This document shows, piece by piece, positions 3,404-49,045 of a DNA stretch of 64,000 nt (position 1 is its first letter; every line of letters begins with the position of its first letter). The stretch lies in the NCBI GenBank assembly GCA_000092065.1, contig CP000593.1. One strand, 5' to 3'. The translations under genes were made by a program, and so were the position numbers. The notes under the pieces are model-generated. The model did not search any database. It saw nothing but the letters and a program-made list of their open reading frames with translations, and was not told the origin of the DNA. The DNA comes from Ostreococcus lucimarinus (lineage: Eukaryota).

Positions 3404-4195
3404 TCACAGCGCGCTCTTTATGACGGCCGCCTCCCCGTCGCGACATCGCGCGTCCCACACCGCGACGCCATCGTCCGCGGCCACCGCGAACTCGGGCTCT
3501 CGACCGTACACTCGTCGCGCGACCTCGATCAAAATCATCGCCGTGAGCCCCCATATCGTGCGCCCCTCGTACTCAAAGTAATGGACGCGCACGGCTGGGC
3601 GCGCCCCGTTCGGCCGCGCCCAGTCGTCGTACCGGTGACGATCCGCGCTCAGAAACATCTCCAGCGGCGCCGTGAACACCTCCGCCACCTCCTCGCGCGA
3701 GATCTCCTCCTCGCGCACGCGAAATCCCTCCCGAACCACCCCCACCACCGGTCGCACGCTCACGCGATGCCTCGACATCACCACCGGCAACCGTCCCACC
3801 ACCTCCACGTCCCTCGGCGTCCGCATCCCGATCTCCTCCCGCGCCTCCCGCGCCGCCGTGCCCGCGTCGCACGCGTCCCGCGCGTCTCGCTTCCCTCCCG
3901 GCAGCGCGATCTCTCCCGCGTGCGATCGCATCGACGTCGCGCGCGTCGTCAGCGTCACGTCCCAACCGTCGTCCCCGCGCGCCGCGAGCGGGACGAGCAC
4001 CGCCGCGCGATCGCTCCCGCGCATTCGCGCGTGCGCCGCCGCGTCGCCGTCGCCGTCGCCGTCGTCGAACAGTCCGCGCAGCGCGTCCGCGCGGCGCGTC
4101 GGCATCGTCGACGCGCCGACGCGTCGCGACGTCGCGACGCATCGTTCCATCCGTCGCGCGCGCCGTCGATCGCGCGCGCGGCGCTTTTGTATCAC
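3404..4195 (-). CDS. Nudix hydrolase of the CoA pyrophosphatase (NUDT7/NUDX15-like) type
   Basis: Has the NuCoA motif LTTRATSMRSHAGEIALPGGK followed by the Nudix box (REAREEIGM). The true start may be an internal Met (M16 or M31). Confidence 0.75.
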   Translation of the reverse strand: MIQKRRARDRRRARRMERCVATSRRVGASTMPTRRADALRGLFDDGDGDGDAAAHARMRGSDRAAVLVPLAARGDDGWDVTLTTRATSMRSHAGEIALPGGKRDARDACDAGTAAREAREEIGMRTPRDVEVVGRLPVVMSRHRVSVRPVVGVVREGFRVREEEISREEVAEVFTAPLEMFLSADRHRYDDWARPNGARPAVRVHYFEYEGRTIWGLTAMILIEVARRVYGREPEFAVAADDGVAVWDARCRDGEAAVIKSAL

Positions 4196-4228
4196 CTTTT
4201 TCGTCGTACACAGTCACCGTTTCGCGCC
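4196..4228. promoter_or_regulatory. Ultra-short (33 bp) divergent intergenic region between the Nudix and SSIII start codons
   Basis: Follows from the two start-codon positions. It implies overlapping 5' UTRs or promoters. Confidence 0.4.
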
Positions 4229-7200
4229 ATGAGTGAAGTCGCGTCGCCGCCGGGTGATGCAAACACCCGGAAGCGCGGATTCGAACGGACGACCACAGCC
4301 ACTCGATCGCGACGCGCGCCATCGCGCGACGCGACGCGACGCGCGTCCAGCGCGCGAGCACGACGCGCGGTGAAACCGCGCGGTGATCCGAACAACCCGC
4401 GGTGCGCGACGCGCGACCGAGCGATCGGTGCGCGGCGTCGACGGCGATCGGCGAAGACGATCGCGGCGGACGGATCGAATCGGTTTTTCGAGACGCGCGC
4501 GCCGCGGGCGATCGAGGCGCGGAAGACGGACGGGATGGCGCGGACGGCGACGCGCGCGGTGAGGACGACGACGACGGGGGGGGGGCGGAGGCGCGGAAGC
4601 GCGGTGAGACGACGCGGGGGGACGCGGGGACGCGCGAGCGCGAACGCGGCGGATGAGACGACGGCGCGCGCGGACGCGGCGGCGGCGGTGCGAGATCTGG
4701 CGAAGACGCAGTTGAACGGCGCGGATGGGCCGAGGGTGTTTACGGTGCCGGCGGTGCCGGTGGCGGGGGCGCCGGTGAGGGTGTTCGCGGACGTGGAGCG
4801 GGCGGACGCGTTGCGGTCGGCGAGCGAGCGCACGCTCGTCGGCGGGTACAACCAGTGGAAGATTGGGTCGTTCGAGAAGGCGATGGAGCGGGTGGAGGGG
4901 ACGAGCTGGGTGTACGTCGACGTTGACGTCGATGAGCGGGCGTACGAAATGTCTTTCGTGTTCAGGGGTGACGGACAGGCGTATGAAAAAGACGAAGGCC
5001 AAGATTTCGTCGCGGCGGTCGACTTCGGGCCGACGCCGGAGGAGTTTGTGGAAATCCTAAAGGTGGTCGCCATGGAAGACGCGGCGCGCGCGGATGCGAA
5101 CGCCATAGTCGACGCTGAAATGGCGTTCGCCCGCGATGGCGTCGCGGGCGTCGGGGCGACGTTTGAAAAGTACGGGCGCCTCATTTGCAAAACCTCCACG
5201 GGGGACGCGGGCGTCGCCGGTAGCACGGAGCGCGTCTTCTGGAACAAGGCACTGAACCCTATTGGCGGTGACGACGCGGAGAAGCTCATCATGCACGTAG
5301 GATTTAACGGTTGGATGCGTGGCGTTGAGGAGAAGTTGACGCTCGTTCGCGCGACGGGCGAAACGAGAGATGAAAATAACGACTGGTGGGTCGCCGACGT
5401 CCCGATTCGTCCTTCGGCGAGCGTGCTCGACTTTGTCATCTCGGACGAGGACGAAATGGCTTGGGACAACAACGAGAACGCGGACTACCGACTCGCCATG
5501 GACGTCACGTCCGACGAGTCCACGTGGGAGGTCTTGCGAGAGCTCACATTCGAAGAAAAACGCGCGGAGGCGCTGCGAGCTTTGGTTGAGGAAAAGCAGC
5601 GCGTCGCCCGCCGCGCGGAGGAGGCCGCGGCGGCCAAGGCGAAGGCTATTGAAGTGGGCTTGAAGCAGCAGGCGTTCATCATTCACACCGAACCGAAAGT
5701 TCCCGAGGTGGGCAAGCCGCTCAAGGTCTTCTACAACAAGAACAACACCCACCTCAACTGGAGCGAAGAAATTTACTTGACTGGCGGCTTCAACCGTTGG
5801 GCGCACGAAACCGCGGTGGCGCCGATGAAAATGACGCCTCCGACTGAGGGCGAAGAATTTTTCTCCGCCACCGTGCCGAGCGTACCGTCTGACGCGTGGA
5901 TGGTCGACTTCGTCTTCAGCAGTGGCGTTGGCGAAGGTGCGCAGTATGATAACAAGGGCGGACGTGACTATCACATCCCGACGCGCGGAAGCGCGGCGAA
6001 AAAGCCGCCTCTGCACGTCGTGCACGTCGCGGTGGAGATGGCACCCATCGCCAAGGTTGGCGGTTTAGCCGACGTCGTCACCGCCATCGGTCGCGCCATT
6101 CAAGATAATGGACACTTAGTGGAAGTCATTCTTCCGAAGTATCAGTTTTTCAACAACTCAGTCTTGCTCGGCGCCAGAGAATACGAAACGCACTTCGATT
6201 GGGCGGGCACGACGATTCGCGTCGAAAAGTGCAAGGTGGAAGGCTTGCAGTGCTTCTTCATCGAGCCGCAAAACGGCATGTTCCAGACCGACTCGGTGTA
6301 CGGTAGAAACGATGATGCTGAGCGTTTCAACTTCTTCTGCAACGCTGCGCTCGAGTTCCTCCTTCGCACGGCTCGTCAGCCGGATATTCTTCACTGCCAC
6401 GACTGGAGTTCGGCAGAAGTCGCGCGAGCTTACTGGGACCACTACCATCACAATGGTTTGACCAAGCCAAAAGTGGCGTTCACGATTCATAACATGAACT
6501 ACGGGCAAGCCAAGCTCGGTGAGGCCGTGCACCACTCACAGATGACGACCACGGTTTCGCCGTCCTATGCGGGTGAAGTCTCGGGCAGCCCGGTGATCGG
6601 AGGCAACGGCGGCAAGTTTACCGGTATTCGTAACGGCATTGATCCCGACATTTGGGACCCCGAAACGGATGCATTCGTGCCGGTCAAGTATAACGCCGAG
6701 AACGCTGAAAAGGGCAAGGCAGCGGCCAGGGCTGAGCTTCGCAGTCGCCTCGGCATGACTGGTTGGGACGACAAGCCCATCGTCGGCGTCGTCTCTCGTC
6801 TCACCGCTCAAAAAGGTGTACACCTGATCAAGCACGCCGCACATCACACCATCAGTCGTGGTGGGCAATTTGTGTTGCTTGGTAGCGCGCCTGATCCCAA
6901 AATTCAAGGAGATTTCAACGGTCTCGCCAATCAACTCGCCGGCGACAACTCTGGTTTCTTCTTCGCGTTTGACGAGCCGTTGTCGCACCTCATGTACGCT
7001 GGTTGCGACATCATCTTGGTCCCGTCTATGTTCGAGCCGTGTGGTTTGACACAGATGATTTCCATGCGCTACGGTGCTGTACCTGTCGTTCGTGCCACTG
7101 GTGGCCTGCGTGACACCGTCTTCGACGTCGATAATGAAAAAGAGCGCGCGGCTTGGGAAATCGCCGGTTCCACCGACTGGGAAAAAGATGGCGACATGAC

Positions 7201-7390
7201 GAACGGCTTTAGCTTCGAAGGGACCGATGAAGGTTCGCTCAACTACGCGCTCGATAGATGCCTCGATGCCTTCTACAACGATCGCGTGTGGTTCCGTTCG
7301 CTTCAAAAGCGTTGCATGCTCCAAGACTGGTCCTGGAACAAGCCCGCGCTCGAGTACGAAGAGTTGTACTTCAAGATGCTCGGGCAATAA
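4229..7390 (+). CDS. Starch synthase III with three N-terminal CBM53 starch-binding modules and a GT5 catalytic domain
   Basis: Carries the KVGGLADVVTAIGRAIQDNGHLVEVILPKY motif (the KVGGL form typical of SSIII/IV). The three CBM53-like modules include LKVFYNKNNTHLNWSEEIYLTGGFNRWAH. The C-terminal half has SMFEPCGLTQMISMRYGAVPVVRATGGLRDT. The six-frame ORF runs from 3581, but its first 216 codons overlap the Nudix gene on the other strand, so the first non-overlapping in-frame ATG at 4229 (MSEVASPP) is taken as the start. Confidence 0.85.
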   Translation: MSEVASPPGDANTRKRGFERTTTATRSRRAPSRDATRRASSARARRAVKPRGDPNNPRCATRDRAIGARRRRRSAKTIAADGSNRFFETRAPRAIEARKTDGMARTATRAVRTTTTGGGRRRGSAVRRRGGTRGRASANAADETTARADAAAAVRDLAKTQLNGADGPRVFTVPAVPVAGAPVRVFADVERADALRSASERTLVGGYNQWKIGSFEKAMERVEGTSWVYVDVDVDERAYEMSFVFRGDGQAYEKDEGQDFVAAVDFGPTPEEFVEILKVVAMEDAARADANAIVDAEMAFARDGVAGVGATFEKYGRLICKTSTGDAGVAGSTERVFWNKALNPIGGDDAEKLIMHVGFNGWMRGVEEKLTLVRATGETRDENNDWWVADVPIRPSASVLDFVISDEDEMAWDNNENADYRLAMDVTSDESTWEVLRELTFEEKRAEALRALVEEKQRVARRAEEAAAAKAKAIEVGLKQQAFIIHTEPKVPEVGKPLKVFYNKNNTHLNWSEEIYLTGGFNRWAHETAVAPMKMTPPTEGEEFFSATVPSVPSDAWMVDFVFSSGVGEGAQYDNKGGRDYHIPTRGSAAKKPPLHVVHVAVEMAPIAKVGGLADVVTAIGRAIQDNGHLVEVILPKYQFFNNSVLLGAREYETHFDWAGTTIRVEKCKVEGLQCFFIEPQNGMFQTDSVYGRNDDAERFNFFCNAALEFLLRTARQPDILHCHDWSSAEVARAYWDHYHHNGLTKPKVAFTIHNMNYGQAKLGEAVHHSQMTTTVSPSYAGEVSGSPVIGGNGGKFTGIRNGIDPDIWDPETDAFVPVKYNAENAEKGKAAARAELRSRLGMTGWDDKPIVGVVSRLTAQKGVHLIKHAAHHTISRGGQFVLLGSAPDPKIQGDFNGLANQLAGDNSGFFFAFDEPLSHLMYAGCDIILVPSMFEPCGLTQMISMRYGAVPVVRATGGLRDTVFDVDNEKERAAWEIAGSTDWEKDGDMTNGFSFEGTDEGSLNYALDRCLDAFYNDRVWFRSLQKRCMLQDWSWNKPALEYEELYFKMLGQ

Positions 7391-23203: not shown

Positions 23204-26200
23204 TCACGACGTTGCACAGAACGCGGCGTCTTCGGTGAAGATGTTAGCGATGGTGACGTTCTGCTCAGGGAGCTGTAACGCCAAACCGTCGATGTGACGA
23301 ACGGTGAAGAGGGCGCTCGATGGACCGCCGACAATCCAGCACTCGGCACAGAGAGAGATATCGCGGAACGTGAGCTCGACGCCGGCCTCGACAACTTTAG
23401 CTTCGACGTAGACGCCACAGCCATTGTCATCGCTTGATGGTGGTCCATCGCGAGATCGCACGCCGACGAAGATGCAATCGACGATGAAGTCTTCTGGAGG
23501 CGCGACAATCGGAGCTTCGTTCGCAGCAACGACGATTCTCTCAAATGGAAGCATCACGGCGACACCATTCAGGCAGATTTGATCGCTCACGCGTCCAAAA
23601 TTGATCGCTGTTCCTGTAACGACAGCTTGAGAACCACCTTCGCCGCGTAAGAGCTGGAGACTCAAGCGTGCGTCCGTCTCGCGTAAACGCTCTGGCGCGG
23701 ACTCCGTCGGACAAATCGTTGCGTCGTCGGGTGAGCACGTTCTCGAAAGTCCATCGACCGGAATCGGCGCCGGAGTCGGTGTGGATGGCGGTGCACCAGG
23801 AGGCAACTGTGCGCCCGGTATTACCGTAATCGTCGACGCTGGGATCTGCACAGGGACACCAGGCTGAAGAGTGAAGTAAGTCGCGGAATCCGGAGCTGGA
23901 GGCGTGGGCGATGATTCTGTCGGAGGCGTAGGCGTAGGCGTTGGCGTAGGCGTTGGCGAAGGCGTTGGCGTAGGCGTTGGCGAAGGCGTTGGCGAAGGCG
24001 TTGGTGAAGGCGTTGGCGAAGGCGTTGGTGAAGGCGTTGGTGAAGGCGTTGGTGGTGGTGATGGCGATGGTGGAGACCTTTGCGTAGGAAACCATCCGCT
24101 CGTCCAAGGAACGTCCGGACCTCGATCCCATGCGGCAATTTCCGTAGGTCCACGCTCCGCGGTGTATCCACCGCCAATCGCCCGTTTCAACCAACACGAG
24201 TGATATGCAAAGTCTTTGCAATCGCCGGTACAGTAAACCCACGTATCACAGTCGCGCGTTCGAAAGCATGCTTGGCAACACGCCTCTTCGGTATCGACGA
24301 TGAATTTTGAGCCATCGCGAAGAAGTATGCCTTTGAGGTTCAATCCTTTTTCGCCGTTGCACACGAGACCGTTTACCGGTGTTGGCGTCATCGGAGGTGA
24401 AGTCGGAAGCATCGCAATTGGCTCAACGAGTTGTCCTTGTATGTCTCTTCGACAAGTGGGGTTTCCAACCGATGGCCCAACGTAATCAAAACGCGCGCCC
24501 GAAAGCGATACAACGCGAAACAAGGTCTCATTGTCGCCCTGGAGTTTGCATCCAGCACACAGCGTGACGTTCGACAGGGAGACTTCGAGCAAAGTAACTT
24601 TCGGCAGTGGTCGTCCACTCGCCTCGTTGAAGACGCCGTCGGGTGCGTACGATGCCATGCGGAATTGAAGCCCTGCACAAGGTTCGAGGCTCGGAGTGCG
24701 AGATTCGCCGTTCACGACGGTTATCATCAAACACTCAATGGCGTACTCGTCGAAAGGATTTTGAACTTCTCTCCACGTACCGTTGATGTCATTTACCCAC
24801 GAACTCAGCACGATTGGGATGTTGACATCAATCAACCGAATCGCACCACCGTCGTTGTTTACTCCAATCGAGCCGCGGAAATCATAGCGGTTGAATGGCG
24901 CGACTCGGAAGTCGCCACCGACGTCGACGCGTTCACCAAACCACGACAGCGAGGCTTGAACGCGTGGAAGGACATCGAGACAATCCACGGGGCGTCCTCC
25001 ATCTGAGGTTTCGCCGTCGAAACCGTCGCGAAAAGATGGACGTGCGTATTGCGTCAAATTGAAGCCAGCGAGCGGTCGTAACGGCGCGATCGATGGTGTG
25101 ATGTCTGTGCGATTTGCGTCGCCAAACTGGTCTTGATCTGGAAAGAAGGGAATGCCACCAAAGAACTGTAGCAATTTGCGTCGTGAATCGTTAGGAGGAC
25201 TCTCGAATACGTCTGTCCAACTACCTCCGACATCGCATTGAAGCGCTCGAATCGTTGGCGCGAGTGCGTCGAGTGTCGCCTCTGATTCATGCTTTGCGGT
25301 GAACAGTTTACCATCTTGAACACGTCCCGTGATGGCGGCATCCGGAGGAATCGTCAAGTTTGCAAGTGTTATTTTGATACCGGCGATACTTTCTTCAATC
25401 GTCGCGCGATCGCACAGCGTATCATCTAGGACTTCTCCGCGAGCGGATATGAGCGAGAGTCCAGCGCATTCCACAGATGGAACGCTCAAAGCATCAACGA
25501 ATTCATTCATGTTACCTTCCCGACGTCGATAGCCAATCACGACCGTGACTTCAGGAACACGAATTGTGCTATTCGCGCAACAACCGATTGCGCCGAGAAC
25601 GTCGTAATCGGTCGAGTTTGGCCGCGAGGCGACGACGAGAAAGTTCTTCAGTTCTCGGACCGGATCGCACTCGCTGCGTCCAGGCGTGTCGCTTGGAATC
25701 ACTTGACCGTTTTCAACGACAACACCGTATCCTTCAAGCGGGCGTGTAATGGGTGGAGTGTCCGTTCCGATCGGAATCGTCGGATCGGTGTCATTTCCGG
25801 GCCGTTCAACGACGATGGTTTGAACCCCTAATTCCTCGGAGAGCGCCGGGCAGGCTTCCGTCAAATTGAACCCGCATCCTAGCGGCGTGAACCCAACAAT
25901 CTCTCGCAAGAACATGACGTTATCGTCGGTGATGAGTGTGAAATCATCGCACAGACAGCTTTCGTTGTGCAATCGAGCTGCAGCGCCGCAGCACGGTGCA
26001 AAATCAGAGATGCGTGGTATCACTCCGACATCGTTTTGCTGAATCGCGCTGCAGTATTTCCGCGTCACGTCAATCGTATCGGCGCAGGAGATGTCATCTC
26101 GCAACGCGCCACCATCGTCAACAATGCGCTCCCACTTTTCGTCGGGGATGACGAACTCGGGTACCGCAGTCGGAGTGCTCAAGAATTGCGTCAAAAGCTG

Positions 26201-29200
26201 CTGATCCTCGCACACGTCACCGACTTTGATTCTAAAACCGCACGCAAGAGGCGTAAATGCTGAAAGTTCACCTACGGACGGGCGGATGCCTTCGAAACTT
26301 TGAATGAACTCTGGAACGCAGAAACATCCAGCTTCATCCAAGTCGCTCAGCGCAACGCAACAACTCGGGAACGAAGCAGGGTTCGGACCACTGATGGTCG
26401 CAGTTTCAAATCCCACGCACAGTTCTTCGACACGTGGGATATTCGACACGCACAACGATGTGAGCTGCGAGTATTCCGAAGTCGGTACGAGAGCTATGAC
26501 ACGAACAAGGCGTTCTGCGGAGACATCGCATCCACCTGAGTCACGCACTCGGTAATACACGCGATAAGTGCCGACACGACTGGTGTCCACTTCGCTTGTG
26601 TCTGCCTCGATTGCGTCTGAAATGTCACCGTCGAGTTCATCCGTCGCAACAGCCCCGGGGTCAACGTACAGCGAGTTGAGCAAGACTTCATTTTGCACTG
26701 CATTTGGTCCGCCGACGAGACGTAGCGTTGGGCATTCATCGACTGGAGGTGGTGGACTCGGCGGTGGCGGTGGAGGCGGCAACGGTGGCGGCGATGGTGG
26801 AGGGGGGCTTGGTGGCGGGGGGCTCGGCACTGGAGGCGGCGGTGGTGGACTCGGCGGCGACGGCGATGGGGGCGATGGGGGTGGTGGTGATGGGCTCGGT
26901 GGTAGAGGACTCGGCGGCGGCGGCGATGGAGAAGGCGGGCTCGGCGGCGGCGGCGATGGAAGCGGACTCGGCGGCGGTGGCGATGGCGGAGGTGGACTTG
27001 GAGGCGGACTCGGAAAGCAAGACAGGCCGGAAACGAGCTCAAGTCCAGAGTCACAGAGAGTCGGTGCAGTGATTTGAACGGTGCGAATCGCATCACCGAG
27101 TTCGTCGATGATGGCTGTATCGCAAAAGCAACGCTCGACGTTCATTCCCCTAACAATGTCGCAGCATGACGGATCGAAAGCTTCGTCATTTTCGATGCCA
27201 AAAATTGATCCACATCGACCTTGTAAATCCTGAAGAAGTCGGAGACAAGTAGGAAGAATCGGAGGGGATGGAGATGGCACCGCCACCGGCGGTGGAGGTG
27301 GCGGCGATGGAACTTCCACCGGCGGTTGCGGCGGAGGTGATGGCGATGGAACTTCCACCGGCGGTTGCGGCGGAGGTGATGGCGATGGAACTTCCACCGG
27401 CGGTTGCGGCGGAGGTGATGGCGATGGAACTTCCACCGGCGGTTGCGGCGGAGGTGATGGCGATGGAACTTCCACCGGCGGTTGCGGCGGAGGTGATGGC
27501 GATGGAACTTCCACCGGCGGTGACGGCGAGGGAGGTGATGGTGATGGAACTTCCACCGGTGGAGGAGGAGACGGTGAAGGTTGCACGATCGGAGGCGATG
27601 GTGGTGGTGATGGCATCATGACTTCAGCGCCGACTACGCCGCTTGTCCATGTCACGTTTTCCCCGCGTTCCCAAGCCGGCACCGGAATCGTTTCCACATC
27701 TTCTTTCGAAAGCTTCTTCAGCCAGCATTCGCCGAACTTGTAGTCGTAGTACTCGTTGCCACAGCCATCGATAGACGCGCAGAATACCCAAGCATTGCAC
27801 TTTTTCATTTTTTTGCACTCGGCGCAGCATTCGGTTTCGCTATCGACAACCAAGTCCGAGCCGCTATTCAACGGATGTCCCTTGTAATTGGCGTTTTCTT
27901 CTACTCGACACCCCTCAATCGACGGGACGGGTTCAGGAATTCGATCGACGAGCGAGCCACTGACCCAAGGAACGCCGTCGCCTCGCGCGATGGCTGGTGG
28001 TTTTTGAGGGTCGCCGCCGACGAGAAAAAGTTTCAACACACACGTCTGGTAAGCGAATTCGCCATCGCATCCGCTGACGTCATCGCAAAAGTTCCACACA
28101 GCACACGCTGGATCAGCGAGGCAAGCGTCGCAGCACGCGCTCCAAGAGACTGCGTTAACAATTGAAATCTGGATTCCGTCGTAGTTTGCGTTTGTCTCTG
28201 CTCGACATTCTTTGCGCTCGTTTGATGTATCAAACGGCACTGGCTCCACTTCTTTATCACGCAGCGCACCGGAGATATAAGTCGCGTTTGGTCCACGTTT
28301 GCCAGGAATGGTGTCTTGAGAAATGATTTCCGGTGCGGCGTACTTGAGTTCGCAGGATGAGTACGAATAAGCGAACTCCGATCGCCCGCATCCGTCGTTG
28401 GCGGTACAGAACGTCCACACGTTGCAGTTTGGATTTTCTCTACAGGCTAAGCAGCAAGCTTCGGGAGATGGAACCAAGAACAAACCAGTAGTGAGTGTAG
28501 ATCCTTCGTACTCTGCGTTTGCCTCCTCGTCGCACGGGCGGACGAGCTCCGCGTCAGTCGGCCCGTCGCCCCGCGGAAATCCAGCGCAAATCGGTTCGCG
28601 TAAACCATTCGGCGAAATTTCTGTGCTCGAGAAACCACGACCATCCGCGTACGAGAGATCGAGAACGACGTTGTTTGGACCACCGACGATGAAGCAGCCC
28701 GGGCACAGCACTAAATCATCACCAAAACTGAGTTCTACGCCTCGTTCGGTAACGACGGCTTTGCATGTTGCCGCGGCGTCGCTCATGGGTACCGATGAGA
28801 TCGGATAGACGATTTGCAACCCCTCGCACGCGGCTTGCAACTGAGACTGCTCGTAGTCTCCGCCGAGATCGATCGCGAACGTCACCTTTGACGCGTCAAG
28901 AGTGCTGCACGAGCGATGTCCGACGATGCCGCGAATTCGAGCGACGCCGTCTTCAATCTGAGACTCGAGAGTGCTGAAGACGACGTCGAGAAGACTCGGA
29001 CACGCACTCAGCATGATTTGAGCGTTTGGATTCCAGCCAAACGTTGACGTTGGTGCGACACTTACGATTGAGGATGCGGTGGTAAACGCGCTGGGATCGC
29101 ACGTGGGATCGAGCGCGCGCACCGATTCGGCGTCAAGCACGCGCGATTCGCGATCTCGAAAAGAAAACAAAAAGTTCGAGTATCCTCCGGCGAGGAACTC

Positions 29201-29644
29201 GCCAGCGTTTAAAGCGATGGCGCCAAACGTCACACGTGGGCCGACATCATTCATCTGGATGCTTAAATCGCCGCAGTCGACGATTCGCCGCGCACCGCTC
29301 GGAGCGACGATCTGCGACCCCCAACACGTAAACTCAAACTCGCCGAGCGTCGTAAACTCGCTCGCGGCGTCATCCAATCGTATCAATTTCGAAAATTCAA
29401 ACTGAACCGTAACTCCATTCAAATTCACCTCGCGATCGGCATCATTCACGATCAACACGCTCGCGTACGTCTCGCGCGCGCCGCGATCCGCGTCGTCGGC
29501 GCGCGGCGCGTCGACGCCGACGCGAAGCATCGAATCCGTCGGCGTCGAGTGACTCCACGCGTACGCATCGATGGACAACGCCCCACCACCGAATCCTTCG
29601 CAATTCACACCCGCAAAATCCACGTTCGTCGCTTCATCGTCCAC
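23204..29644 (-). CDS. Giant (>=2146 aa) mosaic extracellular protein with extensin/HRGP-like proline repeats, four PAN/apple-like modules, three plant 8-cysteine-motif (nsLTP/HyPRP-like) modules and a novel ~100-aa module repeated four times; the 5' end is incomplete
   Basis: Continuous 6.4-kb ORF. Proline-rich blocks: SPPPPSPPPPSP..., (PPQPPVEVPSPSPP)x7 and (PSPTPS/PTPT)n. PAN-like units: CCLACRENPNCNVWTFC, CCDACLADPACAVWNFC, CCAECKKMKKCNAWVFC and CCQACFRTRDCDTWVYC, each followed by a W(T/V)SG motif. The three 8CM units follow C..C..CC..CXC..C..C. The repeated module reads ...GVEL(S/T)F(G/R)D..LC..C.IVGGP.... The ORF begins directly after a TAG with GTG as its first codon, so no ATG or signal peptide is present at the ORF start and the first exon is probably upstream. 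Confidence 0.8.
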   Translation of the reverse strand: MDDEATNVDFAGVNCEGFGGGALSIDAYAWSHSTPTDSMLRVGVDAPRADDADRGARETYASVLIVNDADREVNLNGVTVQFEFSKLIRLDDAASEFTTLGEFEFTCWGSQIVAPSGARRIVDCGDLSIQMNDVGPRVTFGAIALNAGEFLAGGYSNFLFSFRDRESRVLDAESVRALDPTCDPSAFTTASSIVSVAPTSTFGWNPNAQIMLSACPSLLDVVFSTLESQIEDGVARIRGIVGHRSCSTLDASKVTFAIDLGGDYEQSQLQAACEGLQIVYPISSVPMSDAAATCKAVVTERGVELSFGDDLVLCPGCFIVGGPNNVVLDLSYADGRGFSSTEISPNGLREPICAGFPRGDGPTDAELVRPCDEEANAEYEGSTLTTGLFLVPSPEACCLACRENPNCNVWTFCTANDGCGRSEFAYSYSSCELKYAAPEIISQDTIPGKRGPNATYISGALRDKEVEPVPFDTSNERKECRAETNANYDGIQISIVNAVSWSACCDACLADPACAVWNFCDDVSGCDGEFAYQTCVLKLFLVGGDPQKPPAIARGDGVPWVSGSLVDRIPEPVPSIEGCRVEENANYKGHPLNSGSDLVVDSETECCAECKKMKKCNAWVFCASIDGCGNEYYDYKFGECWLKKLSKEDVETIPVPAWERGENVTWTSGVVGAEVMMPSPPPSPPIVQPSPSPPPPVEVPSPSPPSPSPPVEVPSPSPPPQPPVEVPSPSPPPQPPVEVPSPSPPPQPPVEVPSPSPPPQPPVEVPSPSPPPQPPVEVPSPPPPPPVAVPSPSPPILPTCLRLLQDLQGRCGSIFGIENDEAFDPSCCDIVRGMNVERCFCDTAIIDELGDAIRTVQITAPTLCDSGLELVSGLSCFPSPPPSPPPPSPPPPSPLPSPPPPSPPSPSPPPPSPLPPSPSPPPPSPPSPSPPSPPPPPPVPSPPPPSPPPPSPPPLPPPPPPPSPPPPVDECPTLRLVGGPNAVQNEVLLNSLYVDPGAVATDELDGDISDAIEADTSEVDTSRVGTYRVYYRVRDSGGCDVSAERLVRVIALVPTSEYSQLTSLCVSNIPRVEELCVGFETATISGPNPASFPSCCVALSDLDEAGCFCVPEFIQSFEGIRPSVGELSAFTPLACGFRIKVGDVCEDQQLLTQFLSTPTAVPEFVIPDEKWERIVDDGGALRDDISCADTIDVTRKYCSAIQQNDVGVIPRISDFAPCCGAAARLHNESCLCDDFTLITDDNVMFLREIVGFTPLGCGFNLTEACPALSEELGVQTIVVERPGNDTDPTIPIGTDTPPITRPLEGYGVVVENGQVIPSDTPGRSECDPVRELKNFLVVASRPNSTDYDVLGAIGCCANSTIRVPEVTVVIGYRRREGNMNEFVDALSVPSVECAGLSLISARGEVLDDTLCDRATIEESIAGIKITLANLTIPPDAAITGRVQDGKLFTAKHESEATLDALAPTIRALQCDVGGSWTDVFESPPNDSRRKLLQFFGGIPFFPDQDQFGDANRTDITPSIAPLRPLAGFNLTQYARPSFRDGFDGETSDGGRPVDCLDVLPRVQASLSWFGERVDVGGDFRVAPFNRYDFRGSIGVNNDGGAIRLIDVNIPIVLSSWVNDINGTWREVQNPFDEYAIECLMITVVNGESRTPSLEPCAGLQFRMASYAPDGVFNEASGRPLPKVTLLEVSLSNVTLCAGCKLQGDNETLFRVVSLSGARFDYVGPSVGNPTCRRDIQGQLVEPIAMLPTSPPMTPTPVNGLVCNGEKGLNLKGILLRDGSKFIVDTEEACCQACFRTRDCDTWVYCTGDCKDFAYHSCWLKRAIGGGYTAERGPTEIAAWDRGPDVPWTSGWFPTQRSPPSPSPPPTPSPTPSPTPSPTPSPTPSPTPSPTPTPTPSPTPTPTPTPTPPTESSPTPPAPDSATYFTLQPGVPVQIPASTITVIPGAQLPPGAPPSTPTPAPIPVDGLSRTCSPDDATICPTESAPERLRETDARLSLQLLRGEGGSQAVVTGTAINFGRVSDQICLNGVAVMLPFERIVVAANEAPIVAPPEDFIVDCIFVGVRSRDGPPSSDDNGCGVYVEAKVVEAGVELTFRDISLCAECWIVGGPSSALFTVRHIDGLALQLPEQNVTIANIFTEDAAFCATS
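23895..24065. repeat. Tandem 6/12-nt repeat (ggcgtaggcgtt / ggcgaaggcgtt units) encoding the (PSPTPS/PTPT)n track of the giant protein
   Basis: Direct periodicity visible in the sequence at 23904-24060. The alternate frames give the NAFTNAFANAF... and GVGVGEGVGEGV... ORFs. Confidence 0.85.
26740..27040. repeat. Low-complexity GGN/CCN-rich block encoding the SPPPP-type extensin-like region
   Basis: ggtggcgg... and ggcggcgg... runs. The giant ORF reads PSPPPPSPPPPSPLPSPPPPSPPSPSPPPPSP here. Confidence 0.8.
27268..27610. repeat. 42-nt tandem repeat (about 7-8 copies) encoding the 14-aa unit PPQPPVEVPSPSPP of the giant protein
   Basis: The plus-strand unit ggcgatggaacttccaccggcggttgcggcggaggtgatg recurs nearly perfectly, giving the ELPPAVAAEVMAM x5 periodicity in ORF 27268..27621. 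Confidence 0.85.
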
Positions 29645-30117
29645 CTACACCGCCGCGCGCGCGTCAGTCGCGTCCTTCATCCTCGTCTCGCGATTCCATC
29701 GCGGCGTCTCGACGCCGACGCCGCGTCCCGCGCGAATCCTCGCCTCGCACCTGCAGCATCGTCCGCGACGTCCCGAGCCCTTCCCGCGCGCGCGCCACTC
29801 GCGTCTTCGTCCCACCGCCGCGCTTTCGTCAGTCTTTCCCTTCGTCGTCGCGCGCCGTCCCGTTCGAATCGTCCTTCGTCGCGTCGCGTCGCTTTCGAGA
29901 TACGAAGCGTCGTTCGGTCCCATCGTTCGCGTCGTTCGCACCATCGCGCACGCCGCGACGACCGCGTCGCGCACGCGCGCCGCGCCGCGCGTCGTTCGTC
30001 GTCGCGTCGCTCTCGCGTCGCGTCGCATCGTTTCGTCGTTCCCCGTCGTCGCGATGTGTCGTCCATCGTCCGTCCGTCATCCATTCACTCATCATGCATT
30101 CGACCCGGTCGCGCGTC

Positions 30118-30175
30118 GTCGATGTCGACCGACCGACCGACCGACCGATCGATGCGATGCGATGCGATGCGATGG
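30118..30175. repeat. Compound microsatellite (GACC)5(GATC)(GCGAT)5 in the 5' region of the ACBP gene
   Basis: cgaccgaccgaccgaccgaccgatcgatgcgatgcgatgcgatgcgatgg, read directly. Confidence 0.8.
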
Positions 30176-30207
30176 ATGACGCGCGGCACACGTCCGCGAC
30201 GCGCGGC

Positions 30208-31311
30208 ATGGCGAGCGACGCGCGAACGAATCGCGCCAAGGCGTACGCGTACGCGTGCGGACTCGCGATCGGCGCGTTCGCCGTCGTCGCGGGCGCGATG
30301 CGCGACGGACGCGCGGGGACGATGACGGCGGTCGCGCGACGCGCGATGACGGGCGACGGCGGGACGCGCGAGGGCGCGACGGCGATGACGGAGGACGAGA
30401 AAGGGACGACGACGACGACGAGGACGGACGAGGACGAGGACGCGAACGAGGACGAGGACGTCGGGGAGATGGAACGAAGATTCACGCGGTGCGCGGGACA
30501 GTTTAAAAAGTTGCTCGCGGACGCCGACGCGTACTTTGAGCCCGGGCTCAAGGCGAAGATGTACGGGTTGTATAAGCGATGCACGAAGGATTTCGATCGA
30601 GAATTTGAGGGTGGTAAAACGTTCGGCGCGTTGGATGTCGTGGCGAGGGCGAAATACGAGGCGTGGAAGGAGGTGAAGGATTTGACGCGGGAGGAGGCGA
30701 TGGAGCGATACGTGCGGACGTTTGAGATGTGGGGGGCGAGGCGGGACTCGATGCGACCGTCGACGGCGACGCGGAACGCCGATGGGTTCACCGAGGAGGA
30801 CAGACTCGCCGCAGAGGAGTTTCACGCGAGAGATGAGGAGGAGAAGGAGGTGTACGCGAATATGTGGTCGATAAACCGGTCGCAGAGTCGACCGGCGCCG
30901 CTCGAGGACGACGACGAAGCGTCGCAGAGCGCGTCGAACAGCGGCGAGTTGGGGGCGCTGAGCGCGGCGTGTAAGGCAGGTGATGAGGACGCGGCGATGA
31001 AAGCGATCGAGGGCGGTGCGGATGTTAACGAACGCGATGCACTCGGGCGAACGCCGTTGCATTGGTGCGCAGACGGCGGACACTCGAAAATCGCCATGCA
31101 CCTGGCGCTTTTGAAGGCTGACGTCAACGCTCGCGATAGATACGGGCAAACGCCTTTGCACTTTTCGGTCAACTTAGATGACACGGAGACGGTAAATTTA
31201 TTCCTTGACTGGGGCGCAGATCCTTCGATCGCGGACGAGGAAGGGGAGACGCCTGAATCGCTCGGGATTTGGCAGCTCGCCGCGGCGCGCGAAGAAAACG
31301 CGACGGCGTGA
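30208..31311 (+). CDS. Acyl-CoA-binding protein with an N-terminal membrane anchor and C-terminal ankyrin repeats (plant ACBP1/2 or ACBD6-like)
   Basis: TM-like AYAYACGLAIGAFAVVAGAM. ACB domain KKLLADADAYFEPGLKAKMYGLYKRCTKDFDREF...ARAKYEAWKEVKDLTREEAMERYV. Two or three ANK repeats (GRTPLHWCADGGH..., GQTPLHFSV...). Start at MASDAR (ATG 30208). Confidence 0.85.
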   Translation: MASDARTNRAKAYAYACGLAIGAFAVVAGAMRDGRAGTMTAVARRAMTGDGGTREGATAMTEDEKGTTTTTRTDEDEDANEDEDVGEMERRFTRCAGQFKKLLADADAYFEPGLKAKMYGLYKRCTKDFDREFEGGKTFGALDVVARAKYEAWKEVKDLTREEAMERYVRTFEMWGARRDSMRPSTATRNADGFTEEDRLAAEEFHARDEEEKEVYANMWSINRSQSRPAPLEDDDEASQSASNSGELGALSAACKAGDEDAAMKAIEGGADVNERDALGRTPLHWCADGGHSKIAMHLALLKADVNARDRYGQTPLHFSVNLDDTETVNLFLDWGADPSIADEEGETPESLGIWQLAAAREENATA

Positions 31312-44255: not shown

Positions 44256-47200
44256 TTGCGCGATGACTTCCCGGACTGTTTGCCCATACGGAAACTGCCG
44301 CGGACGATTTCGAGCCGTTCGTTCGCCCGTCGCCGCACCGCGCGACGCGCGACGACGGCGACGCGGGCGCCGACGCGCGGCGCGGCGACGACGGCGACGA
44401 TGACGCCGCGCGTCGCGACGACGGCGACGACGCGCCCGACGCCGCGCGCGACGCGAGACGAGAGACGCGCGCGCGGAGGACGACGCGCGGCGGCTGCGGC
44501 GCACGATGGACGACGAAGCGACGCGATGGGACGCGCGATGACGACGCGGGGAGGCGAACGAACGACGCGAGGACGATCGACGTCGTACGATGAAGCGATG
44601 ACGACGCGGGAGTCGGGAGAGACGCGACCGAGACGCGCGGAGACGACGATGGAGGGCGAGGGCGGGTGCGCGGCGACGGCGACGCGGACGACGAACGCGC
44701 AGGGCGTGCACACGGTGTCGATCGCGCTGAAGACGCTGCCGAAGGGAGTGGCGAACGCGAGGGAGGTGACGTTTCATTGGGGGGTGATGCGGGAAAAGAC
44801 GGGGAAGACGTGGCAGGTGTTGCCGAGCGAGTTGCACCCGCCGAACACCGAATATTACAAGGGCGACAAGGCGATGCGGAGCGCGTTTCCGGTGTGGGGA
44901 CCGGTGAACTTAGTGCTCGATCCGCAGGCGAAGAGCGTCGCGTTCGCGCTGTACGTCGAAAAGACTGGAGAGTGGATCAACGCGGTCGGGGGTGGGAATT
45001 TCGAGATCGACCTCGCGGCGGAAACGCCGTCGACGGCGGTCAAAGCGGCGGCGAGCGCCGTCGAAGCGCCCGCGCCGACGCCGAAGGAGGAAATCCTGAA
45101 GACGGCGCCGAAGGTGACTGTGAAGGCGACGGCGACAGAGATGACGAGTGCACTCACCGATCCCATCGAGCTTCTCATCGCGGACATGGCTCGTGTGGAA
45201 TGGGAAGCCGTCGGACGTCCGGGCCTCGACGCCCAGACTCGGGACGACATGCTCAGGCGCGCGGCGGATCAAATCAAAAGTAAGCTCGCCGAGGGTATGA
45301 GTTTTGAGCAAATCGCGGCCGGTGACGCTAGCGTGAAGAGTGTTCCCAAGGTTGTCGCGACTGAAGCGCCCAAGGTGGTTGCGAAGACGATTGAGACGCC
45401 AATCGCGACGAAGAAGTTTTCCCTCGAGGATTTCCAGGCTGTCGCGCAGGACAGAGCGACCGACGACACGAACGTCAAGTGGAATAAACTGTACGAAGAA
45501 GGTGGTACGACGATATTCGTGGAGGCGCGAGAAGTGAATGGTAGTGGGATCCAATTACACGTCTTGGCGGACTCCAAAGACGATCTTATCATTCATTGGG
45601 GCGCGACGACGACGACGGATGGCTCATGGAAACCGCCGCCGCACGGTTTCAGCACTCAACCCTCTCGTTCATGGGCTTCCTCGGGCAGCAGTTGGGAGAC
45701 TGAGCTCGAACGCATCAGTCCCAATCTTCGAGCGGTGACTTTGGATGTGCCGTTGGATGTAAAAGCGCGCGAGGGCATCATCTTTGTGCTACGAACAACG
45801 TCAAACAAATGGATCAAGAATGGTCGAGACGACTTTTTTGCCTCCCTCGAGGGTTCGGTTCTCGAGCGTCCGGCTAAGACGGAGAAAAAGTCGGAGCGTC
45901 GCAAAGATTCCCAACAAGATCGATCGCGTAAAGAGAGCCGTAGCGAACCAGTCGTCGTCAAAGTCGCGAAGAAGGAGAAGCCTGCGCCAATCAAGCGAGA
46001 CCGCTGGGACGTCGACGACATCGCGCTCGATCAGGGCGTATTCCAAAACTTGGGCGGTTTTGTCGCGCAGGATATGGTTGACAGGATTTGTGGCGAAGAA
46101 TCGGGTGCAACACGATCTTTGATGCATCGATACAACGCTGGCGCAGACATGTTGGGCGCAATGCACGGCGCGGGCGAACCCGGACTCACCGCCCTCTTCT
46201 GTTGGTTCCGCTTCATGGCGTTGAGACAGTTGGTCTGGAATAACGATTACAACATCAAGCCACGAGAAATTAGTGCAGCGCAGGCGAGAATGACAGAGGG
46301 TCTGAGTGCGATTTACAGACAAGATCCTGAGTACAGAGACATCGTGCGTCTCATCATGGCTACGATTGGCAGAGGTGGCGACGGAGACGTCGGTCAGCGC
46401 ATTCGAGACGAGATTCTTGCCGTTCAGCAAAAGAACAACTGCAAGGGTGGAATGATGGAAGAGTGGCATCAAAAGTTGCACAACAACACGTCGCCGGACG
46501 ATGTTCCTATTTGTGAGGCGTTGCTCAAATTTATTGCGGCAGATTGCGACATCAGCGTTTATTGGGCGCACCTTCACGCCAACGGCATTGACGCCGCGCG
46601 GATGAAAGCTTACGACCGCCAAATTTGTAGCGAACCCAGCTTCTCTCGAGATCAATACGAAGGTTTGACGGCTGATTTGACCGAGTATCTTCGCACGCTG
46701 AAGGCGGTGCACTCTGGTGCTGATCTTGATTCAGCCGCAGAGGCGTGCCTCGGTTACCACCAAGATGCGTGCAAAGGTAAGGAGATCAATATTCCTCCGA
46801 TTCGTGAAGTTGCGAGCGAACGTCTGGAAGAGCTCTTATGCGCAGCGCGAGAGTTACGTTCTGAAGATCCTTTGCTCGCGCTCGAAGCGATGATTGAGGC
46901 GAGAAGATACCTTTGGACGTGGACTCGTCCCGGCGGAAAATCAAACGATCGCATCAAGGATGTCATTTATCTCGATCTTGCGTTAGAAGGTGCGGCGCGT
47001 TCGGTCATCGAAGGATCTCTTGAATCTTTGCCTACTCGAGCTCCTTACGAAGTTTTGAGAATCATGAGCCTCGTCCTCGAGAATCTTTGCATGTCTGCAA
47101 GCGGCAACCACGAGTTGCGCATTTGCCTGAAAGAGTGGCAAAATGTGCTTGAAGCAGCGAGACGCCAAGGAGATTGGGCTTTGCAGGCAAAAGCGGTGTG

Positions 47201-48833
47201 CGATCGACTGCAAAACTCGCTTGGCGAAATTTCTCAGCGCTATATTGACGCACTTCAGCCGACGGCACAGAGCATGGGAAACAAGCTCGGTGTGGATGGA
47301 CACGTGCTCGACCTGTTCTCGGAAGAAATCATCCGTGGAACTGCAGCGGCGCCACTTTCTCAAATGCTCAGAGTTCTCGACCCAGTTATTCGTAATGTTG
47401 CGAACATGGGCAGCTGGCAAATCGTCAGTAACGCCGAGTGTAGTGGCGTGATTGTTTCGGTCGCATCCCTCGCCGATGTGCAAAATGTCAAGTATTCTCA
47501 ACCGACTGTCATTATTGCCGACCGCGTTGGTGGCGAAGAGGACATTCCGGTTGGCGTGGTCGCGATCGTTACTCCTGATATGCCAGATGTGCTGTCTCAC
47601 TGCGCCGTTCGCGCCCGTAACGAAAAGGTTCTTTTCGCTACTTTGTTTGACGTGAATGTTCTAGAACAGATGAAAGCCATGACCGGGAAATCCGTGCAAC
47701 TCAAGCCGTCTGCGCAGGGCGACGATTTGCAATTCGATGTTGTCGACGGCATCATCGGTACCGACGCGGAGGTCATAGCAACATCGTCGAGCGATTCCGT
47801 TTCGAGTGACATATCGATCATCAAACGTCCGTTTCAAGGAAAATTTGTCGCCACGTCATCAGAGTTTACCCCAGAGCTTGTCGGCGGCAAATCTCGAAAC
47901 TTGCAACTCCTTCGCGGTCGAGTCTCAAACCTCATAAAGTTACCGCCGTCCGTTGCGATGCCTTTTGGTACGTTCGATGCAGTTCTTGATGTCCCTGAGA
48001 ATGCAGGCGCAAAGAGACAAATTGCAGAGTTAGTCAAACAACTTGAAGCGTACGACTCCACAGACGGCGTTGGCTTCAAAGCACTCATTGCGGAAGTCAA
48101 GGCATGTATCGCCACTTTAAAACCGACGGCCGACCTGTCGAAAAGTTTGAAAGTCGCCTTCGAAGCCGAATCACTCGGTTGGCCGGGAGATCTCGTGACG
48201 AGCGCTCAAGGTCAAAAGGCATGGAAGACGATTCTTGGCGTATGGGCAAGCAAGTACAACGAGCGAGCCGTTTTGAGTTGCAAAAAGGCAGGGCTGAATC
48301 ACGCCGATTTGTCCATGGCTGTGCTTTGTCAGCCCGTCGTTCGTGCGCGATACGCATTCGTACTGCACACAGTGAATCCACAAAACAACGACAAGAGCGA
48401 AATTTACGGTGAGCTTGTGTGTGGTCTGGGCGAAGCGCTCGTCGGTAACTTTTCTGGTCGAGCATTGTCATTCAAGACATCCAAGAGCAATTTGGATAAT
48501 CCGACCGTCGTCGGGTTCCCTTCGAAGTCAAAAGGACTTTTCATGGAGCAAGATTCACTTATTTTCCGATCCGATAGTAACGGCGAAGACCTGGAAGGGT
48601 TCGCCGGTGCGGGCTTGTACGATAGCATCACCATGGAGGAGGCAACGTTGAAAAACGTCGACTACTCCACCGACAGCCTCATTACGGACGAAACCAAGCG
48701 ACAAAAGCTTTTAGCGACCATCTCCAAGGTTGCACTAGAGATTGAGACACTTTGTGGGTCTCCTCAAGACATTGAGGGCGCGATATCTGAAGATGGGCAG
48801 CTCTACATCGTTCAAACGCGACCTCAAGTGTAG
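44256..48833 (+). CDS. GWD: Alpha-glucan, water dikinase (GWD/R1-type starch phosphorylating enzyme) with tandem N-terminal CBM45 modules
   Basis: Two CBM45-like modules (VTFHWGVMREKTGKTWQVLP... and LIIHWGATTTTDGSWKPPP...). Phosphohistidine domain PDVLSHCAVRARNEKVLFATLFD. C-terminal nucleotide-binding domain ending EDGQLYIVQTRPQV. The N-terminus is R/T/A-rich and transit-peptide-like. Confidence 0.9.
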   Translation: MRDDFPDCLPIRKLPRTISSRSFARRRTARRATTATRAPTRGAATTATMTPRVATTATTRPTPRATRDERRARGGRRAAAAAHDGRRSDAMGRAMTTRGGERTTRGRSTSYDEAMTTRESGETRPRRAETTMEGEGGCAATATRTTNAQGVHTVSIALKTLPKGVANAREVTFHWGVMREKTGKTWQVLPSELHPPNTEYYKGDKAMRSAFPVWGPVNLVLDPQAKSVAFALYVEKTGEWINAVGGGNFEIDLAAETPSTAVKAAASAVEAPAPTPKEEILKTAPKVTVKATATEMTSALTDPIELLIADMARVEWEAVGRPGLDAQTRDDMLRRAADQIKSKLAEGMSFEQIAAGDASVKSVPKVVATEAPKVVAKTIETPIATKKFSLEDFQAVAQDRATDDTNVKWNKLYEEGGTTIFVEAREVNGSGIQLHVLADSKDDLIIHWGATTTTDGSWKPPPHGFSTQPSRSWASSGSSWETELERISPNLRAVTLDVPLDVKAREGIIFVLRTTSNKWIKNGRDDFFASLEGSVLERPAKTEKKSERRKDSQQDRSRKESRSEPVVVKVAKKEKPAPIKRDRWDVDDIALDQGVFQNLGGFVAQDMVDRICGEESGATRSLMHRYNAGADMLGAMHGAGEPGLTALFCWFRFMALRQLVWNNDYNIKPREISAAQARMTEGLSAIYRQDPEYRDIVRLIMATIGRGGDGDVGQRIRDEILAVQQKNNCKGGMMEEWHQKLHNNTSPDDVPICEALLKFIAADCDISVYWAHLHANGIDAARMKAYDRQICSEPSFSRDQYEGLTADLTEYLRTLKAVHSGADLDSAAEACLGYHQDACKGKEINIPPIREVASERLEELLCAARELRSEDPLLALEAMIEARRYLWTWTRPGGKSNDRIKDVIYLDLALEGAARSVIEGSLESLPTRAPYEVLRIMSLVLENLCMSASGNHELRICLKEWQNVLEAARRQGDWALQAKAVCDRLQNSLGEISQRYIDALQPTAQSMGNKLGVDGHVLDLFSEEIIRGTAAAPLSQMLRVLDPVIRNVANMGSWQIVSNAECSGVIVSVASLADVQNVKYSQPTVIIADRVGGEEDIPVGVVAIVTPDMPDVLSHCAVRARNEKVLFATLFDVNVLEQMKAMTGKSVQLKPSAQGDDLQFDVVDGIIGTDAEVIATSSSDSVSSDISIIKRPFQGKFVATSSEFTPELVGGKSRNLQLLRGRVSNLIKLPPSVAMPFGTFDAVLDVPENAGAKRQIAELVKQLEAYDSTDGVGFKALIAEVKACIATLKPTADLSKSLKVAFEAESLGWPGDLVTSAQGQKAWKTILGVWASKYNERAVLSCKKAGLNHADLSMAVLCQPVVRARYAFVLHTVNPQNNDKSEIYGELVCGLGEALVGNFSGRALSFKTSKSNLDNPTVVGFPSKSKGLFMEQDSLIFRSDSNGEDLEGFAGAGLYDSITMEEATLKNVDYSTDSLITDETKRQKLLATISKVALEIETLCGSPQDIEGAISEDGQLYIVQTRPQV

Positions 48834-48896
48834 ATGCCCGCGCGCGCGGGCACCCATCAAGTATACATCTGCAACGCGCTTCAATTAGTAGTTATT

Positions 48897-48901
48897 GTAA
48901 A
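48897..48901 (+). promoter_or_regulatory. TGTAA polyadenylation signal (green-algal type) 64 nt downstream of the GWD stop
   Basis: tgtaa lies in the AT-richer 3' intergenic region shared with the convergent fumarate reductase gene. Confidence 0.45.
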
Positions 48902-49045
48902 CTTAACGCACGCTAATGATAACGTGAAAGTGAGTCCGAATTTTATTTGACAAAACCGCTATCGAACCGTGATGTACGTACAGTAAATGGAGTGTTGTTA
49001 TAAGCGCAAGATGCGAGTTTTAAGGCGACCGAGTTACGTGTCAAA

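Follow-up and report, generated by a model that had tools for sequence, protein, structure and literature searches.

Long chimeric extensins (EXTs) of green algae are a class of hydroxyproline-rich glycoproteins (HRGPs) that includes the very long HRGPs of Chlamydomonas and Volvox (Liu et al., 2016; PMC4769139). Proteins of this class are restricted to chlorophytes, exceed 2000 amino acids (aa) and alternate repeats in which three to five Pro residues come after a Ser (SP3 to SP5) with non-extensin globular regions, which that study left unanalysed. The hybrid proline-rich proteins (HyPRPs) of land plants are small, with a signal peptide ahead of a single Pro-rich region and a single eight-cysteine motif (8CM) at the C-terminus. 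The nonspecific lipid transfer proteins (nsLTPs) of chlorophytes are secreted with a single 8CM of non-canonical spacing; two of them occur in Ostreococcus tauri, those of Chlamydomonas have a Pro-rich N-terminal region, and none was found in Bathycoccus or Micromonas (Huang et al., 2023; PMC9832785). Here we describe a giant gene in a 64,000-nucleotide stretch of Ostreococcus lucimarinus DNA (assembly GCA_000092065.1, contig CP000593.1; hereafter the window), which is probably a single-copy, functional gene for a modular chimeric HRGP of the extensin type.

The open reading frame (ORF) occupies positions 23204 to 29644 on the minus strand of the window, the strand on which all features of the gene described below lie. 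As an earlier note made from the letters alone had stated, it is uninterrupted over 6.4 kb, and its translation gives 2146 codons followed by a stop. Its length rules out that it is open by chance, and it is also conserved. The encoded protein contains 290 Pro and 89 Cys residues together with 15 N-x-S/T sequons. We counted nine SP3, nine SP4 and two SP repeats with at least five Pro residues, as well as two YxY motifs. These counts and the length equal those of O. lucimarinus gene 93602, whose entry in the class 'Long Chimeric EXT' gives SP3/SP4/SP5/YXY as 9/9/2/2, the length as 2146 amino acids, signal peptide as 'No' and GPI as 'No' (Liu et al., 2016, S1 Table; PMC4769139). The two are therefore the same protein, which has already been catalogued, and the ORF is the main exon of Joint Genome Institute (JGI) model 93602. 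The earlier note did not recognise the architecture and so overstated its novelty. Chlorophyte 8CM proteins, some with Pro-rich N-terminal regions, have likewise already been published (PMC9832785).

The protein is a mosaic of Pro-rich tracts and cysteine-rich modules, as first read. Read from its 5' end, this exon (exon 2; see below for exon 1) encodes two beta-sandwich units and then three PAN units, a Pro-rich tract with an 8CM unit behind it, and an SPPPP-type Pro-rich tract. Next come an Ig-like domain and a pair of 8CM units, another two beta-sandwich units, the fourth PAN unit, the third Pro-rich tract and the last beta-sandwich unit. Long chimeric EXTs share the size and the alternation of extensin repeats with globular regions. 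In the present protein, PAN, 8CM, Ig-like and CBM3-like modules are combined and the model lacks a predicted signal peptide; no sequence similarity to the domains of the volvocine HRGPs was found.

Pro makes up 49-71% of the three tracts. Tract A (aa 684-799, positions 27248-27595) is 53% Pro and contains a 13-aa repeat, VEVPSPSPPPQPP, encoded by a DNA array at 27289-27559 in which Tandem Repeats Finder counts 6.9 copies of a 39-nt period with 96% matches. Tract B (aa 877-970, positions 26735-27016), identified by composition and motif count, reaches 71% Pro and carries the extensin-type SP3 to SP6 repeats. Tract C (aa 1862-1915, positions 23900-24061) is a (PSPT/PTPS)n array with 10.8 copies of a 12-nt period at 23924-24052 (Tandem Repeats Finder). 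All three repeat kinds that had been reported are thus present, with the correction that the middle repeat has 13 residues and not 14. The protein has at least two Ser-Pro(3-5) repeats in an HRGP-type domain rich in Pro, Ser, Thr and Val, which is one of the criteria for an extensin in Liu et al. (2016).

The four PAN/apple units proposed in the earlier note were confirmed by the Pfam profile PAN_4 (PF14295), which matches the protein in four stretches and scores 154.9 bits (cut-off 27, E 5.1e-46), and which also exceeds its threshold in three orthologues. Pfam, self-BLAST and a set of eight Cys residues each delimit unit 1 (aa 371-470, positions 28235-28534), unit 2 (aa 478-575, positions 27920-28213), unit 3 (aa 579-683, positions 27596-27910) and unit 4 (aa 1762-1861, positions 24062-24361). 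The Cys spacing is C-x(23-26)-CC-x2-C-x5-C-x5-C-x(3-5)-C-x(7-11)-C. Each unit is followed by a conserved extension, (E/D/K)RG..V.(W/Y).SG; the W(T/V)SG ending initially ascribed to all of them holds for three of the four, unit 1 having YISG. PAN/apple adhesins thus share the above-threshold modules with eight Cys each, and differ in that here an extension of about 30 aa ending in (W/Y)-x-S-G stands behind each module and in that the context is a chimeric extensin rather than a protease, lectin kinase or micronemal protein.

A further module, overlooked in the first reading, is an Ig-like domain of the family PF16403 (Bact_surface_Ig-like) at aa 971-1049 (positions 26498-26734; Pfam match aa 990-1049). 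The family matches the whole protein with E 2.3e-12 and the isolated segment with E 2.4e-14 (53.5 bits, cut-off 27), and a sequence comparison with the Protein Data Bank (PDB) found the corresponding domain of a bacillolysin (2kpn_A, E 6.5e-5). The domain is present in all orthologues. It is also the only region common to the giant protein and a 2811-aa metagenomic protein (P0004; 43% identity over 4% of the query), in which PF16403 is paired with PKD, HYR and other adhesin-type domains. This pairing shows that the 'bacterial' PF16403 Ig-like domain circulates among large surface proteins.

The 8CM units were recognised by their Cys pattern. Unit 1 (aa 800-876, positions 27017-27247), unit 2 (aa 1065-1145, positions 26210-26452) and unit 3 (aa 1187-1265, positions 25850-26086) have exactly the reported order C..C..CC..CxC..C..C, with the spacing C-x10-C-x15..18-CC-x10-CxC-x22..25-C-x7..11-C. 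A pattern search found 15 such units in four orthologues, and the eight Cys residues are invariant in 13 of 13 aligned units. The family assignment that had accompanied the pattern (PF00234/PF14368) did not reach threshold on the window sequence. No 8CM family matched the whole window protein at E <= 1 in Pfam, and unit 1 alone gave sub-threshold scores for PF00234 (14.8 bits, cut-off 21.7, E 0.035) and PF14547 (E 0.11), while no 8CM-family Pfam match was obtained with units 2 and 3 alone.

Homology to the 8CM superfamily was instead reached through intermediates. A unit of the Bathycoccus-like orthologue (P0003, described below) passes PF00234 with 26.9 bits. An exhaustive hidden Markov model (HMM) search with the 13-unit profile over 1.84 billion representatives returned 62 relatives at E <= 1e-3, among which 26 match PF00234 (best E 6.8e-11), 10 match PF14368 LTP_2 (best E 2.7e-9) and one matches PF14547; when domains were isolated from the relatives, nine of ten matched prolamin-superfamily families and nothing else. 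The 13-unit profile itself found no match in the PDB. After enlargement with the relatives, the profile had just three matches at E < 2 among 177,635 PDB sequences, one to sunflower 2S albumin (1s6d, E 0.043) and the others to nsLTPs (E 0.7 and 1), with the CC, the CxC and the seventh Cys in register in these alignments. AlphaFold 2 models unit 1 as a helical bundle with a predicted local distance difference test (pLDDT) score of 81.8, for which the best Foldseek match, a pea LTP (E 2.7, template modelling (TM) score 0.34), indicates a similarity to nsLTPs that is not significant. Taken together, the sequence links place the three units in the 8CM/prolamin superfamily as divergent members. Strictly speaking they are not nsLTPs, being embedded in a 2146-aa protein for which no signal peptide was found.

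HyPRPs offer a parallel at aa 684-876, where a Pro-rich tract lies directly N-terminal to an 8CM with a hydrophobic residue in its CxC, and where the profile links likewise lead to prolamin-superfamily families only. Here, however, this local pair is accompanied by 16 further modules and tracts, and three 8CM units are embedded in one multidomain protein. In contrast to the single-8CM nsLTPs of chlorophytes, the multi-8CM arrangement extends to Bathycoccus-like and Micromonas-like orthologues. Separately, the 62 relatives include a family of 400-650-aa proteins with GC-rich algal-type sequences (P0117, P0122, P0123, P0126-P0129, P0132, P0133 and P0137), which have two to three tandem 8CM units joined by Pro-rich linkers and, in most cases, clear N-terminal signal peptides. 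Multi-8CM secreted proteins of this type have no description in the algal nsLTP survey (PMC9832785).

These units raise the question of whether the protein is chiefly an extracellular scaffold for lipids, with the three 8CM units as the functional core that presents lipids or other hydrophobic molecules at the surface and with the other modules as anchors. The Cys pattern and its link to the prolamin superfamily would fit such a role, as would the hydrophobic residue (F or L) between the fifth and sixth Cys, which most nsLTP types other than type I also have. Chlamydomonas CrLTP2 binds fatty acids in vitro (PMC9832785), and the number of 8CM units rises to six in the Bathycoccus-like orthologue. 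Against this stand the sub-threshold Pfam scores of the window units, the non-significant structural similarity to nsLTPs and the small share of the protein, about 11%, that the 8CM units occupy. We regard a primarily lipid-handling function as improbable and retain the modular extensin-type glycoprotein as the preferred reading.

The most frequent module is a repeated unit of about 100 aa, which the earlier note had seen four times and called uncharacterised. The repeat is real and has five copies: an iterative HMM started from the C-terminal copy converged on five in each of four orthologues, with E values of 1e-21 to 4e-36 for the window copies. By this HMM and an alignment, the copies lie at aa 69-170 (unit 1, positions 29135-29440, E 1e-33, without a CxxC pair), aa 233-337 (unit 2, positions 28634-28948, HMM match aa 263-337), aa 1357-1458 (unit 3, positions 25271-25576, with the CxxC lost here and kept in the orthologues P0002 and P0003), aa 1599-1719 (unit 4, positions 24488-24850, with an insertion) and aa 2019-2123 (unit 5, positions 23276-23590). 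In the alignment (A2), two Cys residues are invariant and one Gly is nearly so, and most copies have a CxxC pair.

No Pfam family, CBM_3 included, matches any of the five copies even at E <= 10, which agrees with the label 'uncharacterised' as far as Pfam is concerned. The AlphaFold model of copy 5 is all-beta (pLDDT 83.7, predicted TM score 0.72), and its best structural matches, although weak, are CBM3 modules. A comparison of the profile with the PDB gave a single match, also weak (E 0.17), to 4b9c_A, the same RsgI-like sensor module that appears in the structure comparison. Each of these results is weak, and together they point to a divergent CBM3-like beta-sandwich. The unit differs from CBM3 in that about 105 aa are matched here against about 150 in CBM3, in its two invariant Cys residues and CxxC pair, and in that the alignment shows no conserved strip of aromatic residues. 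CBM3 is not known to have a CxxC or invariant Cys residues of this kind, and the host is not known to make cellulose. With the beta-sandwich profile or the N-terminal 370 aa as query, only orthologue fragments were retrieved, and among all proteins retrieved the unit was not found outside orthologues of the giant protein.

A word-indexed protein search with the whole ORF, in which the Pro-rich tracts saturated the candidate list, retrieved four proteins. Besides the metagenomic protein with the shared Ig-like domain, these are P0001 (71% identity, 2136 aa), P0002 (58%, 2030 aa) and P0003 (43%, 3278 aa), the last with a Bathycoccus-like composition. All three have the module order of the window protein. 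In each of them, beta-sandwich units number five and PAN units four, beside a single Ig-like domain; there are three 8CM units, or six in P0003, and the Pro-rich tracts vary in length. Micromonas-like fragments were also found (P0111, P0112 and P0180). Judged by these sequences, the gene is conserved across loci resembling Ostreococcus, Bathycoccus and Micromonas, all of the order Mamiellales. A divergently oriented ACBP-ankyrin gene lies upstream in the window and in the loci L001 and L002, and in the three loci the downstream neighbours are OTU, DUF7148 or TPR genes.

The ORF is under purifying selection. The ratio of nonsynonymous to synonymous substitution rates (dN/dS) is 0.23 relative to the closest relative (94% aa identity over the N-terminal 357 codons), and it is 0.06-0.25 for every module class relative to L001 and L002, with dS saturated in some segments. 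Large exposed glycoproteins can in general serve as receptors, and the variable length of the Pro-rich tracts between orthologues could reflect a surface molecule shaped by interaction with viruses or grazers, for example as an attachment target or decoy for prasinoviruses. The gene, however, sits among housekeeping genes with conserved synteny rather than among strain-specific genes, selection is purifying throughout, and a scan with aa 971-1760 found no relatives in viral contigs. Such an origin is very improbable.

The earlier note had also expected a 5' exon, and alignment of the upstream DNA of the window with that of three Ostreococcus-like loci agrees with it. The ORF starts directly after a TAG, and the four loci share a donor (CAG|GTG(C/A)G), a CTGA-type motif resembling a branch point and an acceptor (YAG|G). 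In the window, the predicted intron is 106 nt long (29645-29750); its donor reads CAG|GTGCGAG and its acceptor TAG|G, and CTGAC is its branch-point-like motif. Across the four loci its length is 106, 99, 84 and 123 nt, and three of them have in-frame stops or a frame shift within it. The donor also matches in the Bathycoccus-like locus, where exon 1 extends past the end of the contig, and the Micromonas-like ORF has no intron. The candidate coding end of exon 1 is ATG CTG CAG (MLQ; 29751-29759). Its ATG (29759-29757) is the sole one that precedes the donor in frame in this genome; a stop codon lies 26 codons upstream of this ATG.

Exon 1 ends in R-x-x-L-Q in all loci (L001, L003, L005 and the window), the versions being SRTMLQ, SRSMLQ, SRALLQ and PRRALQ, and the Micromonas-like P0180 has PRRLLQ. 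The window copy is at 29751-29775. We also observed a similar SRRKLLQFFGGIPFF inside the protein at aa ~1485-1500 (window ~25145-25190), which is conserved in all four orthologues, and an RRSLLQ behind the signal peptide of an unrelated 8CM protein (P0130). The motif could be a processing or sorting signal.

Several observations weigh against secretion. The ~450-bp region that separates the ORF from the ACBP-ankyrin gene encodes no signal peptide in any frame, and the best-supported N-terminus, MLQ|VDDEATNVDF..., is hydrophilic. We found no convincing transmembrane segment, the highest 19-residue Kyte-Doolittle window scoring 1.71 and containing charged residues, and the ORF has no hydrophobic C-terminal tail of the kind used for a glycosylphosphatidylinositol (GPI) anchor. 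The catalogue entry for 93602 agrees on both signals (PMC4769139). In favour of secretion, predicted signal peptides are listed for three of the four O. lucimarinus long chimeric EXTs (PMC4769139 S1 Table). Extensin-style cross-linking through Tyr is unlikely, since PAN units 1 and 3 contain the only two YxY motifs (aa 426 and 633) and none lies within the extensin tracts. The cell-surface location claimed at the outset thus did not find support from a signal peptide, a transmembrane segment or a GPI-type tail.

These negatives could mean that the protein is not secreted at all, either because it is an intracellular proline-rich scaffold or because the gene model has no functional secretory route, so that its likeness to extracellular modules would mislead. 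Modules of the PAN, 8CM and Ig-like types need an oxidising compartment, however, and 89 conserved Cys residues are distributed over them here. The Cys patterns are invariant across orthologues, and many 8CM relatives have clear signal peptides. In addition, the spliced N-terminus at L002 (MKRERRWTRRVFDVVDFIAVT|AMCATIGAMAQA|PDG) is weakly signal-like, and since exon 1 of the Bathycoccus-like locus passes the contig end, a signal further upstream is possible there. An intracellular location therefore seems to us improbable, although the missing signals speak for it. Two candidate signal peptides were rejected. The upstream ATG ORF in the window, MRRDARATRRR...AVVAACAMV, is too weak and has no splice-site support, and a hydrophobic ORF of 73 aa upstream of the L002 orthologue is mostly the translation of a T-rich intron. 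A gene caller had rendered this intron of the 58%-identity orthologue (L002 4838-5000) as a 'protein' of 73 aa, whose hydrophobic, signal-anchor-like stretch is probably an artefact.

Because of the module types, the 89 patterned Cys residues and the 15 N-glycosylation sequons, we infer that the giant protein enters the secretory pathway. Its Cys residues would there form intradomain disulfides in the PAN, 8CM and beta-sandwich modules, and the Ser-Pro(3-6) and (S/T)P tracts would be hydroxylated and O-arabinosylated or O-galactosylated to give stiff polyproline-II spacers that keep the globular binding modules apart. Hyp-Araf3 has been mentioned for O. tauri as unpublished data, and arabinosyltransferase orthologues are present in chlorophytes (PMC8012813). 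Protein or glycan may be the ligand of the PAN and CBM3-like modules, and a lipid or other hydrophobic molecule that of the 8CM modules. A cell that is otherwise naked would in this way have a scaffold for adhesion or an extracellular matrix.

A special case of this explanation is that the protein belongs to a cryptic sexual or resting stage only, as a Mamiellales counterpart of the Chlamydomonas agglutinin and the zygote-wall HRGPs. The vegetative Ostreococcus cell is naked and offers no obvious vegetative matrix in which such a protein would serve, and the gene has one copy and is kept in all the orthologous loci found. Outside this case, long chimeric EXTs are known from Chlamydomonas and Volvox only (PMC4769139). 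The zygote walls of Chlamydomonas consist mainly of extensin-like HRGPs, and both of its 8CM nsLTPs with a Pro-rich N-terminus are expressed specifically in late zygotes (PMC9832785). Conversely, we detected no homology to Chlamydomonas agglutinins or pherophorins. A pherophorin-type domain, considered as a candidate module, was rejected for want of a Pfam match. Sex is not known to have been observed in Ostreococcus. We therefore think it unlikely, though less so than the lipid-centred and intracellular alternatives, that the protein is confined to a sexual or resting stage. The same modest weight is given to the wider form of this proposal, in which it would be an adhesion or coat scaffold of an unobserved sexual or resting stage of Mamiellales, assembled from lineage-specific modules that include a new CBM3-derived family and multi-copy 8CM units.

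The host of the window is a wall-less picoalga, as had been guessed from the sequence: the ORF at 56308-57954 is 100% identical to XP_001422948.1 (ADA2) of O. lucimarinus CCE9901, and other neighbours fall into 90%-identity clusters with named members from Ostreococcus sp. 'lucimarinus'. The CCE9901 entries linked to two window genes are recorded on contigs of different length, namely XP_001421091.1, a 466-aa model in the cluster of the UPF1-like gene (contig of 528,469 bp), and ADA2 (contig of 321,799 bp). Either XP_001421091.1 is a paralogue or other locus within its 90% cluster, or the strain or assembly of the window is arranged differently from CCE9901. The G+C content is 0.52-0.54 at positions 46000-50000 and 24000-26000, compared with 0.60-0.70 elsewhere in the window; one of these low stretches sits within the giant ORF, over a central part that is not Pro-rich.

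The genes around the giant gene are metabolic or housekeeping genes and include two starch synthases, an alpha-glucan water dikinase, DDX24-like and UPF1-like helicases, a cytochrome-b5 desaturase, a bile-acid/sodium symporter, ADA2 and an ABC1 kinase. Genes for glycosyltransferases or surface proteins form no cluster here. The starch-synthase genes are in tandem on the plus strand (1172-3346 and 3581-7390, the second with two CBM53 modules), and the alpha-glucan water dikinase gene (44256-48833, plus strand) lies 37 kb off, making the window rich in starch-metabolism genes. The region of about 450 bp (29645-30093) that separates the giant gene from the ACBP-ankyrin gene (30094-31311, plus strand) consists mainly of GACG/CGAC-type repeats and is presumably a bidirectional promoter. 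The divergent arrangement of the two genes is kept in L001, L002 and L005.

The gene was catalogued and its class known, as were 8CM proteins in chlorophytes, so that our analysis refines existing knowledge and does not reveal a new kind of system. New here are the domain-level description of the catalogued protein, the five-copy CBM3-like module, which among the retrieved proteins is confined to orthologues of the giant protein, the multi-copy 8CM units in Bathycoccus-like and Micromonas-like orthologues, and the conserved intron with its R-x-x-L-Q motif. The five-copy beta-sandwich unit represents a domain family so far absent from Pfam. For the evolution of the 8CM, the locus shows that these domains occur as multi-copy modules of large proteins in Bathycoccus-like and Micromonas-like orthologues; the survey had found no nsLTP in those two genera. 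If the proposed scaffold of a sexual or resting stage were true, the 'Pro-rich plus 8CM' design, similar to that of HyPRPs, would have originated in chlorophytes, either earlier than in seed plants or independently of them.

No free-living eukaryote is smaller than Ostreococcus, whose cell lacks both a wall and scales. Purifying selection nevertheless maintains in it a 2146-aa protein with the build of a wall or adhesion glycoprotein. Knowing where and when this protein is produced would reveal the extracellular matrix of such a cell, and the giant protein could supply a molecular marker of a hidden stage of its life cycle.

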